40,925 nucleotides of DNA from a virus (Duplodnaviria > Heunggongvirae > Uroviricota > Caudoviricetes). The notes beneath the pieces are model-generated. The model was not told the origin of the DNA, did not search any database, and worked only from the letters and a program-made list of their open reading frames with translations. Both the position numbers and the translations under genes were made by a program. The first letter of the stretch is position 1. The number at the start of each line of letters is the position of its first letter. The DNA lies in the IMG/VR virus record IMGVR_UViG_2585427787_000014; one strand, given 5' to 3'. Positions 3,211 to 40,925 of the stretch are shown here, piece by piece.

Positions 3211-4665
3211 TTATTGCAAATATCCTTTTTTGTTTTTTAGCATTCTCGTTAACGCCTCTGTCCATGAAGCCATGATACTGATTTGCCCCTCAACTGTAGG
3301 ATGGATGTTGTCACCATACCATCCTATGTTTGCTCCAAAGTTTCTGCGCATATCAGCAAATTCATAGCCATTTTGTATGCAGAACTTTTTCAGCGCATGA
3401 GTATATTTTGCATGCGCGGCATAGTTAGCAGTAGTTACACCGTGAATACCACTATGCTCCTTAGTAGTAAAAATTGGGAAAATGCCAAAAACAGGGATAG
3501 CACCTGCGGCAACTATTTTATTTGCTATAGTCTGAACGTTTGTTACATACTGAGCTACAGCGGTACCACCTTGCTGGTCGTTAGTTCCTATCATACAAAG
3601 TACAACATCATGAGGTGAGTAATCTGTTGTTGAGCCTTCACCGGAAGACCAATAGGATGAACTGGTACCACTTACAGCATAATTTGTAATTGATACCTTA
3701 CCTACGTTGTCTGAGTTCTGTATAAAAGATGGTAATAGTTTTGTTATATCGTTGCTGCACCATGCGCCATAGCTAATTGAGTCTCCTATTACCCCAATAT
3801 TCAACGGACGCTTAACTCTCACTTTATAGTTTGACGTTTTAAGACAATCCAAAAAAATAACACCTTTGGCATCGCCACTACCCAACAAAATGAATCCTGC
3901 GTTAGCTACGGCTCCATTGAATCTATAAACTGGAAAGCCGTTAATAATAAATGTCATTACTGAATCATTAACAACAAATCCAAGATTAACCTGCTGATTA
4001 CTAACCCATCCATACGCACCACCGTTAGGGAGGGTGTAGGACTCATTTATTGTTTGAGTTCCATAAAAATTAAATCCTTTAACCATTAAGGTTGCACTTG
4101 ACACTGTTACATATGCTAATATAACCTCGTTTGAGGTTTTTATAAATACACCACATGATTCAGACATTCCACTTGTAAACACATTGATCTCATAAAGAGA
4201 ACCATTCTCAAGTGATGTTGGGTATAGAACCTGTGGGTTCGCTGAGAAATCAGATGACCACGTCACAGTGCTTGATGTTACAATTCCTGTTCCTGAGATG
4301 CTAATGTCTCCTGTTGAAACATTATAGACTTTCTGATTCCAGCTCGTCAGATCCACAACAGAAGATAACTCATTTAGTGACATGTTAACTAAACCAGGAG
4401 CAACATTATACAACTCCTTCAAGTCAACGAATGTATTTGCAGGTTTAACTAAAGTTGTTCCACTTACAGGATTTTTAATTCTTAAATTTGTTAATAATAA
4501 CAAATCTTTTGTATTTGGATTTTCATCAATATTAAATGTTATACCATCATCAGCATGAATTTTCAATCCTGATAAATCAGGCCGACCGCCAGAAAAAAAA
4601 AACGGTACCAGCCCCGTCAAAGTATAATGTTTCTCCAATTTCTGAAAGATAACTACGGGCAGCAT
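3211..4665 (-). CDS. tailspike C-terminal part with SGNH/GDSL esterase domain (downstream frame of a split tailspike)
   Basis: 484-aa ORF. C-terminal SGNH hydrolase blocks: GDS (IGVIGDSISYG), GxND (CMIGTNDQQGG), DxxH (GDNIHPT). Overlaps upstream ORF 4577-5788 across a T10 run. AT-rich. Confidence 0.65.
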   Translation of the reverse strand: MLPVVIFQKLEKHYTLTGLVPFFFSGGRPDLSGLKIHADDGITFNIDENPNTKDLLLLTNLRIKNPVSGTTLVKPANTFVDLKELYNVAPGLVNMSLNELSSVVDLTSWNQKVYNVSTGDISISGTGIVTSSTVTWSSDFSANPQVLYPTSLENGSLYEINVFTSGMSESCGVFIKTSNEVILAYVTVSSATLMVKGFNFYGTQTINESYTLPNGGAYGWVSNQQVNLGFVVNDSVMTFIINGFPVYRFNGAVANAGFILLGSGDAKGVIFLDCLKTSNYKVRVKRPLNIGVIGDSISYGAWCSNDITKLLPSFIQNSDNVGKVSITNYAVSGTSSSYWSSGEGSTTDYSPHDVVLCMIGTNDQQGGTAVAQYVTNVQTIANKIVAAGAIPVFGIFPIFTTKEHSGIHGVTTANYAAHAKYTHALKKFCIQNGYEFADMRRNFGANIGWYGDNIHPTVEGQISIMASWTEALTRMLKNKKGYLQ

Positions 4666-5788
4666 TATATTGAGTGAAAGAATCTGTTACCCCATCATAC
4701 TTAATACCCCACTGCCTCGCCCTTGTCGGATATAAGGACTCTACATACATGCCACCTGCAATAGAAAATATATGCCCTCCATCATCAGTAGCGGATCCAC
4801 TGCGGATTACTCCAATATTTCCACCTCCATCATTCTTTGAGTAATAACCAGACCATTCAACCATCATTCCATTGTACGATGAGTCAAAAACAACATGGTG
4901 GGCATTAGATAACACGCCAGACCTTAGATCTGCTACTGTAGAGAAAGTCAGTTTTACAACATTATTGTCGAGGTAATTCTCAAGCGTTCCGAAGTACTTA
5001 TCGCCAATAAATGACGCCCCGTTACTGGACGCAAGATCAGACCTTAAGCTGGCATCGCCAACACTAAGCCACTTACCACTTCCTATCCCCCCTGTGCTCT
5101 CAGGTGTAGAGTCGGTGGGGACTACTTTTGGTAGTGTTCCATCCCACCTGAACCATTCGCCTGAGCTTTCCTGGAGAAGAACGTCGTTAGGATAGTTGAT
5201 GGTATTACCCAGCTCAAAAGACCTCTTCGTGTTATAGCCATACAGTCCATTCTTCAATGTATCAATGATAGTTGCCAATAGGTTACTCAAATCACGATAA
5301 AGATCATCAATATATTTTTTTGTAGCTGCATCTTGTGGCATAGACGGATCACGGAGGTTTCTTATATAGAATCCCAGCGCATCATAGAAACTGGCAATGC
5401 TGCTTGGTCTTTTTAGTGCCAATCTGTTATCACTAAAAGCCTGCTGAATTAGCATCGTCAGTTTATCAAAAGCATCTTCATGTACTTCTGCGAAGAACTT
5501 ACCCTGATTTCTGAGATCTGTTTCCTGGGTAACTGGCAACTCTCTGGATATCGAAATCTGATAACCATTAGCAAGAGGAGCAGACAAAACAACATTTCCT
5601 CCAGTGTATCCACCAGCGCCAGTTACCGTATAACCGGTATCCAGAACCAATTCTGTTACGTTCCCGTTCAGGTCAGACACCTGAACAACCAGGTCGGATT
5701 TTTTGAAAATACGGAAGGTATACGGAAATGATGTCGTAACGCCGTTACCTGTGTATTCGTTGTGGTCAACTTCGGTTGAGACCGTCAT
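4577..5788 (-). CDS. tailspike N-terminal (virion-attachment) part (upstream frame)
   Basis: 403-aa ORF ending five codons after the T10 run. N-terminus (MTVSTEVDHNEYTGNGVTTSFPYTFRIFKK...) matches my recollection of conserved tailspike head-binding domains of epsilon15/phiV10-like podoviruses. Confidence 0.65.
   Translation of the reverse strand: MTVSTEVDHNEYTGNGVTTSFPYTFRIFKKSDLVVQVSDLNGNVTELVLDTGYTVTGAGGYTGGNVVLSAPLANGYQISISRELPVTQETDLRNQGKFFAEVHEDAFDKLTMLIQQAFSDNRLALKRPSSIASFYDALGFYIRNLRDPSMPQDAATKKYIDDLYRDLSNLLATIIDTLKNGLYGYNTKRSFELGNTINYPNDVLLQESSGEWFRWDGTLPKVVPTDSTPESTGGIGSGKWLSVGDASLRSDLASSNGASFIGDKYFGTLENYLDNNVVKLTFSTVADLRSGVLSNAHHVVFDSSYNGMMVEWSGYYSKNDGGGNIGVIRSGSATDDGGHIFSIAGGMYVESLYPTRARQWGIKYDGVTDSFTQYNAARSYLSEIGETLYFDGAGTVFFFWRSA
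4593..4602. repeat. A10/T10 homopolymer at the junction of the two tailspike reading frames
   Basis: Ten consecutive A on the plus strand; both tailspike ORFs read through it (VFFF in the upstream frame, PFFF in the downstream frame). Confidence 0.9.
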
Positions 5789-34508: not shown

Positions 34509-35093
34509 ATGAAAAGTATCCAGGACGTCCGCAGGCAAAATCTCAACGACTTGATCGACCGTGAATTCAATGGTGTTCAGACGCGGATGGCAGAAAAACT
34601 TGGAACTCAGGCAAATCTGGTAAACCGCTGGGCTCTTGGCAAGAAGGTTATCGGCGACCAGGTTGCGCGAAAAATTGAAGCTGCCGCCAATAAACCCCGT
34701 AACTGGCTTGATATCGATCGCTCGCTTTCTCAGGAAGGTTTTCAGCCTGTCGGCCCGAGTGATATAGGTCAGCTGGCTGCTCACAACCTGGAACGCTGGA
34801 TGAGCGAAAGCCGCGACCTTTCAACGCAGGGAAAACTACACCGCGCATCCGGCGTCGCCCAGGTGACAATCAGCCGCCTGTTAAACAATGAGGTCAGCGT
34901 TTCCATTTCCACCCTGGAGAATGTTGCATCCGCATTCGGGCGTCATGGCTATGAATTACTGATTCACCCGCACGACCCTGCGACTATCAACTATGACCGC
35001 TCGCGCTACGCATTGTTACCCGAAACCGAGAAAGCAAAGATCGAAAGTTACATTGAATTTGTCATCAACCAGAACGAAAAAAACAAACAATAA
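34509..35093 (+). CDS. CI-like repressor with two HTH (XRE-type) domains and no recognisable peptidase domain
   Basis: 194-aa ORF; HTH-like segments near residues 20-60 (GVQTRMAEKLGTQANLVNRWALGKK) and 95-150 (LHRASGVAQVTISRLLNNEV); no LexA/S24-like Ser-Lys region seen; followed by a terminator. Confidence 0.55.
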   Translation: MKSIQDVRRQNLNDLIDREFNGVQTRMAEKLGTQANLVNRWALGKKVIGDQVARKIEAAANKPRNWLDIDRSLSQEGFQPVGPSDIGQLAAHNLERWMSESRDLSTQGKLHRASGVAQVTISRLLNNEVSVSISTLENVASAFGRHGYELLIHPHDPATINYDRSRYALLPETEKAKIESYIEFVINQNEKNKQ

Positions 35094-35114
35094 AACTATA
35101 GTTTTCAGCAAGTA

Positions 35115-35136
35115 AGCCGCCTCATGGCGGCTTTTT
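35115..35136 (+). terminator. rho-independent terminator after the repressor gene
   Basis: Stem GCCGCC / GGCGGC with loop TCAT, followed by T6. Confidence 0.65.
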
Positions 35137-35149
35137 TATTGCCTGTTAG

Positions 35150-35166
35150 ATTACCTGTTGGGTAAT
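35150..35166. promoter_or_regulatory. operator-like palindrome (ATTACC-TGTTG-GGTAAT), upstream site of the leftward-type early promoter
   Basis: Perfect; about 20 bp upstream of a TTGACA hexamer (35186-35191). Confidence 0.55.
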
Positions 35167-35211
35167 TTTTTTAACTCATATCTATTGACATCAAACCAGA
35201 TACGCATAATT

Positions 35212-35228
35212 ATTACCTCAACGGTAAC
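35212..35228. promoter_or_regulatory. operator-like palindrome (ATTACC-TCAAC-GGTAAC) overlapping the putative -10 region
   Basis: Starts 20 bp after TTGACA and ends 18 bp before ATG 35247. Confidence 0.55.
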
Positions 35229-35904: not shown

Positions 35905-36722
35905 ATACTGGCATCTATTTCGACATCAGCAATGAGGACTACCACGCCGGTGACGGCGTGAGTAAGTCGCAACTGGACATGGTTGCCAAGAATCCGGCGC
36001 TTCTTAAATGGGTTCAGGCAGCACCAGAAGACGAAGAGAAAAAGTCTGCACTAGATATGGGAACTGCATTGCACTGTCTGCTTCTTGAACCTGGAGAATT
36101 CGACAAACGCTTCATTGTTTCACCAAAGTTCGATCGTCGGACGAAACAAGGTAAAGCTGACGAAGAAGCATTTCTTCGTGATGTAGCGGATATGGGGATT
36201 GCGGTACTTGATGCCGAGCAGTGGCGGAAACTGGAGCTGATGCGTGATAGCGCAATGGCTCACCCGGCGGCACGCTGGATGCTGGAAGCACCTGGTTACT
36301 GCGAAGCATCAATGTACTGGAACGATGAAGAGACTGGTGAGTTGTGCCGCATTCGTCCAGACAAATGGCTGAACGAGCACAACGTGATCGTCGACGTGAA
36401 AAAGGTTGCAGATATGGACCGTTTTGCACGCCACATTGAGGAATTCCGCTACCACGTGCAGGACGCAATGTACCGCGAAGGCGCAATGAGGGTTACTGGT
36501 CAGCCGCATGGTTTTTTCTTTCTTGCCGTGAGCGAAAGCATTGATTGTGGTCGGTATCCGGTACGCGTGTTCGAGCTGGATGCGCAGGATGTCGATGCCG
36601 GGCACGCTCTGTTCCGCCGGGATCTGAATACCTATCACGAATGCCGCATCAATGATGAATGGGGCGGTGTGGAAATCATTAAACGCCCTGAGTGGGCACG
36701 CAAACAGGATATGTACATATGA
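35901..36722 (+). CDS. PD-(D/E)XK-type recombination exonuclease (Exo/RecE-like partner of the annealing protein)
   Basis: 273-aa ORF, ATGA-coupled to the Bet-like gene; D...D/E-x-K-like signature around IRPDKW...VIVDVKKV. Confidence 0.55.
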   Translation: MNTGIYFDISNEDYHAGDGVSKSQLDMVAKNPALLKWVQAAPEDEEKKSALDMGTALHCLLLEPGEFDKRFIVSPKFDRRTKQGKADEEAFLRDVADMGIAVLDAEQWRKLELMRDSAMAHPAARWMLEAPGYCEASMYWNDEETGELCRIRPDKWLNEHNVIVDVKKVADMDRFARHIEEFRYHVQDAMYREGAMRVTGQPHGFFFLAVSESIDCGRYPVRVFELDAQDVDAGHALFRRDLNTYHECRINDEWGGVEIIKRPEWARKQDMYI

Positions 36723-37660
36723 GCAACGACATCGCAAACATCAACGCACCAGTAGACACAGCAATCGCTGGAACTGCTGCAACTATTTTCAGCCCAGACG
36801 GCTTGAACCAACTGATGAAATTCGCCGAGGTAATGGCGAAAAGCCGCGTAACGGTACCGGCGCACCTCTCCGGGAAACCAGCTGATTGCATGGCCGTGGC
36901 AATGCAGGCTGCGCAGTGGGGAATGAACCCGTTTGCCGTTGCTCAGAAAACCCATGTTGTGAACGGCACGCTAGGTTATGAAGCCCAATTAGTAAACGCA
37001 GTTATCTCAACGATGTCGCCAACAAAAGATCGCATCAACTACGAGTGGTTCGGGCCGTGGGAACGCGTGATCGGTAAGTTTGTTGAGAAAACATCCAAAA
37101 ACGGCCATCCATATATCGCACCAGGCTGGACTCTAAAAGACGAAGAAGGCTGCGGTGTTCGCGTATGGGCAACCATGAAGGGCGAGGATCAACCTCGAGT
37201 GCTTGAGTTAATGCTGTCTCAAGCACAGGTAAGAAACTCCACACTTTGGGCCAGTGATCCGAAACAACAACTCGCATACCTTGCGACAAAACGCTGGTCT
37301 CGCTTGCACTGTCCTGACGTAATCATGGGCGTCTACACACCAGACGAATTACAGGAAACGGCACCGCGCGTTGAGCGAGACATTACTCCGCAAACGACCA
37401 CTGCTGCGGGAATGAACAGTCTGATCAACGCTAAACCAGTGAAAAAGCCTGATGAGCAAACGCGTAAAGCGGATAGCCGTGATCCAGAAGAAATGCTGAT
37501 GGCCTTTACCAGCGCAGCGATGAATTACAGCACTGTCTCCGAACTAGATAAGGCTTACAAATACATTGCACAAAAACTTTCAGATGATGACGAACTGCTG
37601 GCAAAAGCCACCGACGTTTACAGCGTTCGTCGGGAAGAATTAAACGAAACATCTATGTAA
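36719..37660 (+). CDS. single-strand annealing protein, Bet/Red-beta-like
   Basis: Start MSNDIAN overlapping the nuclease stop (ATGA). Similarity to lambda Bet as I recall it (TLWASDPKQQLAYLATKRWSRLHCPDVIMGVYTPDE vs GPWQSHPKRMLRHKAMIQCARLAFGFAGIYDKDE). Confidence 0.6.
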   Translation: MSNDIANINAPVDTAIAGTAATIFSPDGLNQLMKFAEVMAKSRVTVPAHLSGKPADCMAVAMQAAQWGMNPFAVAQKTHVVNGTLGYEAQLVNAVISTMSPTKDRINYEWFGPWERVIGKFVEKTSKNGHPYIAPGWTLKDEEGCGVRVWATMKGEDQPRVLELMLSQAQVRNSTLWASDPKQQLAYLATKRWSRLHCPDVIMGVYTPDELQETAPRVERDITPQTTTAAGMNSLINAKPVKKPDEQTRKADSRDPEEMLMAFTSAAMNYSTVSELDKAYKYIAQKLSDDDELLAKATDVYSVRREELNETSM

Positions 37661-37709
37661 CCACCACCGCGGCGCCACGCGCGCCGCACTGCAACCAAGA
37701 GAGGTATTT

Positions 37710-37958
37710 ATGAAAGGTGCATTAGGTAAGAAGGAACTCCTGGCGGTGGTGCCACTGTCATGGAGCACTATCGACCGTATGGAGCGCGCAGGGGAATTTC
37801 CTAAACGCTGGTATATCACTGACAAACGCTGCGCATGGAACCGTGACGAAGTTGAGCGTTGGCTTGATGAACGTCAGGCAGCAAGCCCGGCAGAGTTCCA
37901 GGGTAAAAAGCCTCCTGTTCAGCAACGTGTATATCGTCCTGTGAGCAACGCTGCATGA
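37710..37958 (+). CDS. AlpA-like small DNA-binding protein (possible excisionase/regulator)
   Basis: 82-aa ORF with AGAGGT Shine-Dalgarno; motif STIDRMERAGEFPKRWYITDKRCAWNRDEVERWL resembles AlpA/Xis-type HTH. Confidence 0.55.
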   Translation: MKGALGKKELLAVVPLSWSTIDRMERAGEFPKRWYITDKRCAWNRDEVERWLDERQAASPAEFQGKKPPVQQRVYRPVSNAA

Positions 37959-38067
37959 GTGCGCTGCTAAGGCACTGGAGCAAATGGTCAGGATGGTACT
38001 TATTCCTGGCCTCTGTTTCAGCATGGCTTTATCTGCTGGCATTAATTTTCAGAGAGGGTTGGATTAA

Positions 38068-38367
38068 GTGAGAAAGTTAAGCCGACTTGAAAAATATCAC
38101 ATGAACAAGGTTTCAATGCGCAGCCCTTCAAAGGTTGTTGCCGTTACTCCTGCGGCGATAGAGATCGAAAAACGCGCGATTGAAAGAGAGAAAAAAGGGC
38201 AGTTCCGCATTGCCGCCCACCTTTGGCTTCAGTGTATGGATGTTGCTTCTGGTGATGTTGAGCGTGCAAGGATCGCGGTTCGCAGGGACCAATGTATCAC
38301 AAAAGGTAACGGCCTTCGCCGTGGCGACTATAGCGGCATAGGATGTTGTGGGGTGGTTTATGACTAA
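38068..38367 (+). CDS. hypothetical small regulatory-type protein
   Basis: 99-aa ORF, GTG start with GAGGG upstream (alternative ATG at 38101). Confidence 0.4.
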   Translation: MRKLSRLEKYHMNKVSMRSPSKVVAVTPAAIEIEKRAIEREKKGQFRIAAHLWLQCMDVASGDVERARIAVRRDQCITKGNGLRRGDYSGIGCCGVVYD

Positions 38368-39010
38368 GAAATACACACTAATCTATGCAGATCCACCCTG
38401 GGTATACCGGGACAAAGCCGCAGATGGTAATCGCGGTGCCGGTTTTAAATATCCGGTTATGAGTGTGCTGGATATCTGCCGCCTTCCTGTGTGGGATTTG
38501 GCCGATGAAAACTGTCTGTTGGCCATGTGGTGGGTGCCAACACAACCACTCGAAGCGCTAAAAGTTGTTGAAGCCTGGGGATTCCGTCTGATGACCATGA
38601 AGGGCTTCACGTGGATAAAATGTGGTAGTCGACAACCAGATAAACTGGTTATGGGTATGGGACACATGACTCGCGCCAATAGTGAAGATTGCCTGTTTGC
38701 AGTAAAGGGAAAACTACATCCGCGCATTAATGCAGGGATCGTTCAGTCATTTACCGCACCGCGGCTTGAGCATTCAAGAAAACCAGATGTCGTTCGTGAA
38801 AAACTTGTGCAATTGTTAGGCGATGTTTCTCGCATTGAACTGTTCGCCCGCCAGTCGTCTCATGGCTTCGATGTTTGGGGTAATCAGTGCGAAGACCCGG
38901 CAGTGCAACTAACTCCTGGATACGCGTTGGATATTGCCAGATTAACAAATGCATTCAGCAATGCTCCGCTGTCACCAACAGACAACCAGGGGCGGGAGCG
39001 TGCAGCATGA
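38360..39010 (+). CDS. MT-A70 family DNA N6-adenine methyltransferase
   Basis: DPPW catalytic motif near the N-terminus ([12 protein letters not shown]); start MTKKYT preceded by GGGGTGG (track start 38348). Confidence 0.7.
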
Positions 39011-39666
39011 ACCTATATCAACGCATCAATGGCGCTGACTGGTGCAATATCTTCGTCGTCGGCGATCTGCATGGGTGCTACACGCTGCTGATGAACGAAC
39101 TCGACAAAGTTTCATTCGACCCGGCGCGCGATTTGCTTATTTCCGTTGGTGACCTTGTTGACCGCGGCGCTGAAAACGTCGAATGCCTGGATTTGATTAC
39201 TATGCCTTGGTTCCGAGCTGTTCGTGGCAACCATGAGCAGATGATGCTGGATGCACTGGTCAACGGCGGAAGTTTCGGACATTGGATGTCAAACGGCGGT
39301 GGATGGTGGCACCAACTTGATTCTGAGCAGGATGTGCAACTCAAATACCTTCTGCCAAAGGTTACCAACCTCCCGATGATTATCGAACTGGTTACCGGCA
39401 ATAAGAAGGTCGTCATCTGCCACGCAGACTACCCGCACAACGAATACGCATTCGATAAGCCAGTACCGGAAGAAATGGTGATATGGAATCGTGAGCGGGT
39501 TAGCGACGCGCAGGACGGTATTGTCTCGGAGATAACCGGTGCCGATTTGTTCATCTTCGGTCATACGCCAGCACATCACCCACTGGTGTATGCAAACCAA
39601 ATGTACATCGACACCGGCGCAGTGTTCTGCGGAAATCTGACGCTTACCAAAGTCCAGGAAGGATAG
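39007..39666 (+). CDS. Ser/Thr protein phosphatase (metallophosphoesterase, lambda NinI-like)
   Basis: Start MNLYQRI overlapping the methylase stop (ATGA); metallophosphatase motifs GDLHG, GDLVDRG, GNHE. Confidence 0.75.
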
Positions 39667-39668
39667 AA

Positions 39669-40925
39669 TTATTTATTACTGTCTTCCATCCACTTCTCAA
39701 ACTTCGACGGGGAGAACGGAATCAGATCCGTATGCTCCCCGTCAATCCAAGAATCAATCATATCGGCCCACTGCTGCAACATGTAGGCGCGCTGTCTGGC
39801 GTATTCCGCTTTGTTATATACGGCGCGCACACCTTTCTGCTCATGTGCCAGAGCCTTTTCAATCCAGTCTGAAGGATAACCAGCCTCATGCAACAACGTA
39901 CTGGCTGTACGGCGCATATCGTGTACGGTAAAATCCTGAATATGCTCACCATCTTCATTTATTATTTTCACCGTTCTGTCGATCAGAGAGTTCAGCGCGG
40001 CATTAGATAATGGCTTCCGGAAATTGTAACGACCAGGAACCAGATATTCACTTCCACCAGCGCACATCTGCAACCCGACCAATATATCCTGTGCCTGTTT
40101 AGGCAGGTAAATAACGTGCGCCCGGCTTCCCTTCATGCGGTCTGGAGGAATTGTCCATGTCCATTTTTTAAAATCTATTTCATCCCACGTTGCATTGGTG
40201 AATTCGCCTTTACGAACCATAGTGATAAGCACCAACTTTAAAGCCATTTTCATAGTACCCATAGCACCAATGGCATCCAGCGTGCGGAAGAACAGGCCAA
40301 TTTCTTCTGGTGTCAGTGTTCGCTCTCGTGGTTTAAATATGGCGATAGACGAAGGTTTAATGTCAGCCGCAGGATTAAACAAACCATGACCACGGTCATT
40401 GGCGTGACGGTATACGCTGCTGATGATCTCCCTGGCCTGTACTGCTGTTGCACGGCCACCGCGTTCGACAATCCGGTCACACAAATCACGAACCATCGAT
40501 GTGGTAATTTCAGTCATCATTTTGTTGCCAAGAACCGGAAGTATGTCACGGTCGATCACCGCCTGCTTCATTGCGCGGGTACTGTCAGCCAGGATGACGT
40601 GTTTCATATAACTGTCGGTATGTACCGCAAACGTCTCGGCACCACGAATCTTTTTGATACCGTCACGTTTAGCCGCAGCCGGTGACTGGCCTGCTTTAAG
40701 CAGCTTCTTTGCAGCAATCAGTTCTTCTCGCGCTTCTGCCAGGCTGATACCGTCACGCCCATACTGCCCGATTACCAGCGTTTCGCGGCGACCGTTGATA
40801 CGGTAGTCGTAGCGAAACGAGACCGTGCCTGACGTAAGAACAGCTACATACAGCCCGTCACGATCGGAGACCTTGTACAGTTTGTCCTGCGGCTTGAGGT
40901 TTTTTAATTTTGTATCGGTAAGCAC
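39669..40925 (-). CDS. int: tyrosine integrase, P4-like (N-terminal arm-binding domain); 5' end at or just beyond the window edge
   Basis: 418-aa ORF reaching the window end; N-terminus (LTDTKLKNLKPQDKLYKVSDRDGLYVAV) typical of P4-type integrases; C-terminal catalytic R...HxxR...Y pattern (HDMRRTA...Y). Confidence 0.8.
   Translation of the reverse strand: MLTDTKLKNLKPQDKLYKVSDRDGLYVAVLTSGTVSFRYDYRINGRRETLVIGQYGRDGISLAEAREELIAAKKLLKAGQSPAAAKRDGIKKIRGAETFAVHTDSYMKHVILADSTRAMKQAVIDRDILPVLGNKMMTEITTSMVRDLCDRIVERGGRATAVQAREIISSVYRHANDRGHGLFNPAADIKPSSIAIFKPRERTLTPEEIGLFFRTLDAIGAMGTMKMALKLVLITMVRKGEFTNATWDEIDFKKWTWTIPPDRMKGSRAHVIYLPKQAQDILVGLQMCAGGSEYLVPGRYNFRKPLSNAALNSLIDRTVKIINEDGEHIQDFTVHDMRRTASTLLHEAGYPSDWIEKALAHEQKGVRAVYNKAEYARQRAYMLQQWADMIDSWIDGEHTDLIPFSPSKFEKWMEDSNK

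Follow-up and report, generated by a model that had tools for sequence, protein, structure and literature searches.

The methylase described here has counterparts in phages phiV10 and epsilon15 and in an Stx2 phage. The phiV10 protein gp33 is 96.8% identical to it and likewise lies between the PerC gene and the integrase gene (int), the epsilon15 enzyme is 76% identical and occupies the same position, and the enzyme of the Stx2 phage is approximately 82% identical, again in the same position and adjoining int. At this locus, the sole difference between these phages and the window (that is, the whole stretch of 40,925 nucleotides that was analysed) is the next gene: a DUF1382 gene follows the methylase in phiV10 and in the Stx2 phage, a gene for a 60-aa protein in epsilon15, and a protein phosphatase gene in the window.

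Two further described enzymes, M.EcoGI and M.EcoGII, are like the methylase in being prophage-borne orphan adenine methyltransferases of the beta class; they are non-specific and were reported to be silent in the lysogen (PMC5778455). On the other hand, they are 349 aa long, carry a DPPY motif and have a central target-recognition domain, whereas the methylase has 216 aa and is of the MT-A70/DPPW type. Since length, motif and domain differ, an identity of the methylase with either of them is ruled out, and their non-specific activity is not transferable to it. M.EcoGIX, which is plasmid-borne and unrelated to the methylase, was rejected as well.

For the phosphatase, the described system to compare with is NinI of phage lambda (ORF221; PDB 1G5B). 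The two proteins are of equal length, align without gaps with 67% identity and have the signature motifs and nine active-site residues in common; the closest phage allele is NinI of the HK225/phi80 type (79%). The start codon of the lambdoid ninI gene overlaps the upstream stop codon too (GCATGA). However, in lambda and HK225 the gene lies in the nin region, between the replication genes and Q, and in the window between the methylase and int. The phosphatase is a sequence homologue of NinI, but not its positional orthologue. Both lambda ninI and P1 ppp were scored as non-essential for plaque formation (PMC10695390), and by analogy the phosphatase of the window is probably non-essential, too.

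Public databases already list the two genes side by side and under these names. In phage vB_EcoP_PAS61 (OQ921333) and in the prophages carried by E. coli APEC O1, HN257 and others, the order AlpA-PerC-methylase-phosphatase-int is found with 98-99% DNA identity and no difference of substance, and the two products are called adenine DNA methyltransferase and serine/threonine protein phosphatase. The RefSeq names are "MT-A70 family methyltransferase" and "serine/threonine protein phosphatase"; in GenBank, the genes of phages PAS61 and BP9 are annotated as well.

The window is a prophage of E. coli, namely of a phiV10/epsilon15-like temperate podovirus (genus Uetakevirus). Positions 1162-25000 are 95-97% identical to phages HEMP4, phiv142-3 and phiV10, and positions 37700-40925 are, over their full length, 98-99% identical to vB_EcoP_PAS61 and to prophages of many complete E. 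coli genomes. In sequenced E. coli genomes the matching prophages have guaA and guaB as annotated neighbours, with the prophage at the 3' end of guaA; integration at this site was demonstrated by experiment for the relative vB_EcoP_ZX5 (PMC9782041). At the other end of the window there are two plus-strand ORFs (within 1-1071) that have no match in phages of the phiV10 type. They encode a small glycine-zipper/TraT-like protein and a DUF5384 protein, and are probably cargo or flanking genes at the far end of the prophage. The tailspike region (3211-5788) contains an ORF with a Tail_spike_N domain and an ORF with a GDSL lipase/acylhydrolase domain, both unmatched in phiV10; these domains suggest an esterase-type receptor-modifying spike that is different from that of phiV10.

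The genes and sites around the methylase and the phosphatase are the following:

34509-35093, plus strand: repressor-like gene with a double HTH, found by domain search
35114-35133: terminator-like hairpin between the repressor-like gene and the promoter-like site
35151-35165 and 35213-35227: two copies of the palindrome TTACCT-N4-GGTAA that flank the promoter-like site; the bracket spans 35151-35227
35185-35213, plus strand: promoter-like site TTGACA-17-AATTAT, found by promoter scan
38068-38367, plus strand: gene of a PerC-family regulator (Pfam PerC, E = 6e-07) that overlaps the methylase start by 8 bp
38360-39010, plus strand: gene of the predicted MT-A70-family (beta-class, DPPW) N6-adenine methyltransferase, 216 aa; ATG at 38360, TGA at 39008-39010
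39007-39666, plus strand: gene of the NinI/lambda-phosphatase-type protein phosphatase, predicted to be Mn-dependent, 219 aa; ATG at 39007, TAG at 39664-39666
39669-40925, minus strand: gene of a P4-type tyrosine integrase (int; Pfam Arm-DNA-bind_3, Phage_int_M and Phage_integrase), convergent with the operon

The operon is unbroken on the plus strand and consists, in this order, of two small ORFs, a winged-helix gene, a PD-(D/E)XK exonuclease gene and the genes for RecT, AlpA, PerC, the methylase and the phosphatase. It runs head-on into int, the stop codon of which is 2 bp from that of the phosphatase. A terminator was sought between the phosphatase gene and int and none was found; between 35228 and 39666 the plus strand contains neither a promoter-like nor a terminator-like site. 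The recombinase gene further upstream (36692-37660, and homologous positions in the loci L008-L063) is itself mosaic among near-identical prophages: the RecT alleles are 98-100%, approximately 74% or approximately 41% identical to that of the window, and the recombinase is annotated as Bet in one E. coli genome (L004, RefSeq) and as a RecE-RecT fusion in phiV10.

The site at 35151-35227 is where the operon, with the methylase and the phosphatase at its end, is likely to have its regulated start. Searching the window for TTACCT-N4-GGTAA with at most one mismatch, we found 27 strand-matches at 14 sites, compared with 0.35 strand-matches expected:

15-bp palindrome sites: 3189, 5893, 6274, 7341, 24948, 25563, 28604, 32046, 32108, 34054, 34391, 34439, 35151 and 35213

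Compared with the list of ORFs, these sites are intergenic almost without exception. Several are found in pairs spaced 62 bp around promoter-like regions (32046/32108 and 35151/35213), and the palindrome is found again upstream of the repressor-like gene but nowhere from 35228 onwards. Paired sites occur in phiV10 (654/716 of locus L001) and in a Klebsiella Uetakevirus (L005) as well, and the palindrome looks like a putative operator or regulator-binding site that is shared genus-wide. It is only these operator-like palindromes that point to an early, repressor-controlled expression of the operon.

The methylase matches the Pfam family MT-A70 (PF05063) over the whole profile (1-172 of 172) with E = 2.9e-22 and 79.9 bits (cut-off 23.9), and PHROG 359, "DNA methyltransferase", with 5e-119. 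The catalytic motif IV, DPPW, is found at residues 11-14 and is aligned to the DPPW of solved MT-A70 proteins. The protein consists of the catalytic core, a tail of 40 aa and nothing more; its gene has the genes for PerC, the phosphatase and int as neighbours, and no nuclease-type domain adjoins it. These properties suggest an orphan DNA N6-adenine methyltransferase. The literature that was searched assigns no target motif to this enzyme, and the methylome papers on ST131 and O111 list no prophage enzyme of the MT-A70 type with an assigned motif. One part of the gene deserves a separate entry:

38891-39012, plus strand: C-terminal tail of the methylase past the MT-A70 domain; it contains the ribosome-binding site GGGAG (38994-38998) and the ATGAA(C) joint (39007-39012)

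In the diverged IMG/VR locus L062 the 40-aa tail (38891-39006) and the joint are kept although the body of the methylase is only 51% identical in protein. For the slot downstream, the tail may mainly be a conserved linker with the ribosome-binding region.

The signature motifs of the PPP phosphatases (GDxHG, GDxVDRG and GNHE) can be read in the translation of the phosphatase gene as GDLHG, GDLVDRG and GNHE. The protein matches Pfam Metallophos (E = 1.2e-15), PHROG 246, "NinI-like serine-threonine phosphatase" (9e-108), and the structure 1g5b (E = 6.7e-100), with which it is colinear and gap-free over residues 1-217. The domain matches of both proteins are far stronger than chance would produce. 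The residues D20, H22, D49, R53, R73, N75, H76, H139 and H186, which we take to be the metal ligands and catalytic residues of 1G5B, are all found with the same numbering. Its scores against the NCBIfam equivalogs of E. coli PrpA and PrpB do not reach the cut-offs. With 51.4% GC compared with 49.0% for the window, the base composition of the gene gives no foreign mark. By analogy with lambda phosphatase, we would expect a Mn2+-dependent phosphoprotein phosphatase of broad specificity (Ser/Thr/Tyr).

The two genes overlap by the four letters ATGA (39007-39010), with the ATG of the phosphatase (39007-39009) placed on the TGA of the methylase (39008-39010). A GGGAG is found 8 nt upstream of this ATG, within the methylase gene. 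Such overlaps occur at four of the nine junctions of the operon, and two other junctions overlap by 8 and 13 bp; the overlap of methylase and phosphatase is the ordinary packing style of the operon and not distinctive. RNA folding of the junction gave no structure that would hide the phosphatase start or enforce coupling (z = +0.94). Up to this point, a previous sequence-only reading of the locus was correct: Pfam and the translations confirm the DPPW methylase and the phosphatase with its three motifs, the overlap can be read directly, the pair does end the recombination/AlpA/PerC operon next to the integrase, and each gene is indeed known separately in lambdoid phages, as seen from annotated relatives, the match to 1g5b and the nin region.

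The position behind the methylase is occupied by different genes in different prophages. The DUF1382 gene of phiV10 (64 aa) overlaps the stop codon of the methylase by ATGA as well, and the order in the Stx2 phage is methylase-DUF1382-DUF1627-int. Seven related prophages from Superficieibacter, Pseudescherichia, Kluyvera, Citrobacter, Scandinavium and Klebsiella have other small ORFs in the slot, except for one in which it is empty; most of these ORFs begin at a GCATGA overlap. Furthermore, 634 complete E. coli genomes match a query that reaches from the methylase to int, approximately 546 records with at least 95% identity. According to coverage classes and a 60-row sample, which do not amount to a full census, the phosphatase is carried by 143 complete E. 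coli genomes (at least 80% query coverage), that is, by about a quarter of the carriers, and the records without phosphatase, sampled at even spacing, contain DUF1382 in 35 out of 37 cases and a small 82-aa ORF with an AntA-type antirepressor in 2 out of 37. All three E. coli cassettes use one and the same ATG, the same GGGAG ribosome-binding site and the 4-bp overlap.

The borders of the exchange are sharp. Identity between the window and the alternatives runs through ...GGGAGCGTGCAGCATGAA(C) to 39011/39012, breaks, and resumes at 39686 within the 3' end of int. On the left side, identity extends through 39012 with phiV10 and through 39011 with a locus that carries the antirepressor cassette (L003). 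The junction alignments define the following segment:

39013-39685, no strand assigned: DNA specific to the cassette, in place of the DUF1382 gene of phiV10; it comprises the body of the phosphatase gene and the last five codons and the stop codon of int

The exchange boundary lies inside int, so the phosphatase cassette brings its own last five int codons, and the C-terminus of the integrase is set by the cassette (39669-39685): it reads ...WMEDSNK if the phosphatase is present and ...WMAGE if DUF1382 or the antirepressor takes its place. Since unrelated genes replace each other here while the flanks are near-identical and the breaks sharp (39012/39013 and 39685/39686), the arrangement is best described as a mosaic replacement cassette at a gene border, as in modular phage evolution. 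The methylase is a stable part of the recombination-AlpA-PerC-methylase-int module. A classical moron was considered and rejected, as no promoter-like or terminator-like site lies beside the phosphatase gene on its strand and the resident ribosome-binding site and ATG are used.

In some variants of the locus a further gene is inserted between PerC and the methylase. It encodes a DGQHR/DndB-like protein of 355 aa, overlaps the methylase start by 4 bp and accompanies either the phosphatase or the DUF1382 cassette:

L002 (E. coli CM2) 3697-4764, L004 1434-2501 and L095 2437-3489: DGQHR/DndB-like gene (NCBIfam DGQHR 7e-57, PADLOC DndB 6e-38)

The neighbourhood of a DndB-like protein and an orphan methylase may be of more interest than the pair of methylase and phosphatase.

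An adjacent phosphatase is missing from all of the 40 methylase relatives (54-90% identical) that were taken from species-representative genomes of other species. One Ewingella prophage contains both genes in a lambdoid nin region, approximately 0.9 kb apart. An exact-pattern scan of species-representative genomes for the joint of methylase tail and ATGA gave no match. As for the phosphatase, 80 loci from IMG/VR were inspected: in 54 the methylase is directly upstream, all of them with Uetakevirus-type backbones, and in 26, from lambdoid or other contexts, there is no methylase within 4 kb. A Klebsiella Uetakevirus has a NinI-type gene in the replication operon instead.

Within IMG/VR, five loci with diverged backbones (L055-L057, L061 and L062) keep the adjacency, with methylases that are 51-83% and phosphatases that are 84-97% identical to those of the window. 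Their left and right joints are identical to the joints in the window, which argues that the arrangement arose once and then spread. For L055 and L057 the DNA identity with the window is 93-97% in the phosphatase gene, 74% in the body of the methylase and 79-80% in most of int, with 90% in the first 100 nt of int that adjoin the cassette. Since the phosphatase is far more conserved between backbones than the methylase, the cassette appears to be exchanged laterally and independently of the methylase allele. In L056 the frame of the methylase is broken, the phosphatase is intact and a DUF1382 gene lies upstream of the methylase, but this is a single draft and could be a sequencing error. The adjacency in about a quarter of the E. 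coli carriers and on diverged backbones was kept or repeatedly re-created; recurrent adjacency would also fit a selective benefit of both genes together. Neither the co-occurrence across lineages nor the joint inheritance or transfer of an obligate two-gene module was observed.

In our opinion, the methylase and the phosphatase are probably accessory genes of a phiV10-like temperate podovirus, dispensable and independent of each other, that were juxtaposed by modular recombination and do not form a two-component system. Upon infection or induction, the operator-flanked early promoter near 35185 would drive the methylase, probably along with the early recombination genes, and the enzyme would methylate phage DNA, most plausibly blunting restriction. 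The last approximately 120 nt of its gene would supply the GGGAG and the ATG, and any gene that lands in the slot would be translated from there. The lambdoid phosphatase gene starts at GCATGA too, and could have been joined start codon to start codon over this short common sequence, bringing along some 17 nt from a different 3' end of int. Its product would act on host phosphoproteins during lytic growth.

The sequence-only reading had seen in the coupling of the two genes a host-takeover or anti-restriction pair. Taken further, the two would be co-selected, with a stoichiometry fixed by translational coupling, for which one can cite the common operon, the 4-bp overlap, the ribosome-binding site within the methylase gene and the adjacency both in the 143 complete E. 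coli genomes and on diverged backbones with an identical joint. The data do not support such a pair, and we consider it very unlikely: the same ATG, ribosome-binding site and ATGA joint serve at least three unrelated cassettes in near-identical E. coli prophages and further small ORFs in relatives from other genera, and outside of the Uetakevirus-type lineage neither gene predicts the other, as seen from the absence of an adjacent phosphatase in all 40 methylase relatives from other species and from the lambdoid NinI relatives without an adjacent methylase. Furthermore, the much stronger conservation of the phosphatase DNA between backbones speaks for independent transfer, that is, for a cassette that moved between diverged backbones regardless of the methylase allele, and the RNA of the junction has no coupling structure. 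The broken methylase frame of L056 points in the same direction, but carries little weight given the possible sequencing error. A yet smaller chance is left to the methylase being an RNA m6A methyltransferase and not a DNA methyltransferase. The Pfam family is named for the METTL3 subunit, the annotation in phage BP9 reads "IME4 RNA methylase", and METTL3 chains match at E = 1.9e-05; however, among solved structures the nearest are proteins of the MT-A70 family (E = 2.6e-13), the best of which we take to be the DNA 6mA enzymes of the ciliate MTA1 complex. The PADLOC model of type II restriction-modification DNA methyltransferases fits far better still (2.6e-76), relatives are listed as phage DNA methylases in 517 phage records, and the RNA-binding zinc-finger regions of METTL3 are absent from a protein of 216 aa that has only the catalytic domain and the 40-aa tail.

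A third possibility, which we regard as unlikely, concerns the phosphatase: as a cargo gene for counter-defence or inter-phage competition, it would erase Ser/Thr/Tyr phosphorylation by kinases of host defence systems or of rival phages, and the slot would be a cargo hotspot. The alternation of cargo in the slot is indeed typical of accessory hotspots, and the phosphatase cassette moves laterally. Phosphorylation is moreover a live battleground, given the report that broad phosphorylation by the T7 kinase disarms bacterial defences, in which lambda phosphatase was used as a reagent only (PMC13645617). On the other hand, PADLOC has no model that matches the phosphatase (nor DUF1382 or PerC), and the literature search found no report of a NinI-type phosphatase in defence or counter-defence. 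Besides, the phosphatase gene lacks a promoter of its own, and as part of an apparently repressor-controlled operon it would probably be silent in the lysogen. That the position between methylase and int is, in prophages of the Uetakevirus and Stx types, a cargo hotspot with a conserved docking joint, and the phosphatase a counter-defence or competition effector, seems improbable to us. Two accessory genes brought together by modular recombination remain the explanation that we prefer.

The finding is of little importance beyond the correct annotation of the locus, and the adjacency makes neither the motif of the methylase nor the substrates of the phosphatase more tractable. A routine overlap of stop and start codon can no longer be taken as a sign of a new system for anti-restriction or host takeover. 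Naturally occurring variants with a difference in the slot only would be a convenient isogenic material. For the prophage family, which is found in roughly a tenth of the complete E. coli genomes, an interchangeable slot is now documented; should the counter-defence role be true, the lambda phosphatase, long an orphan, would gain a biological role.
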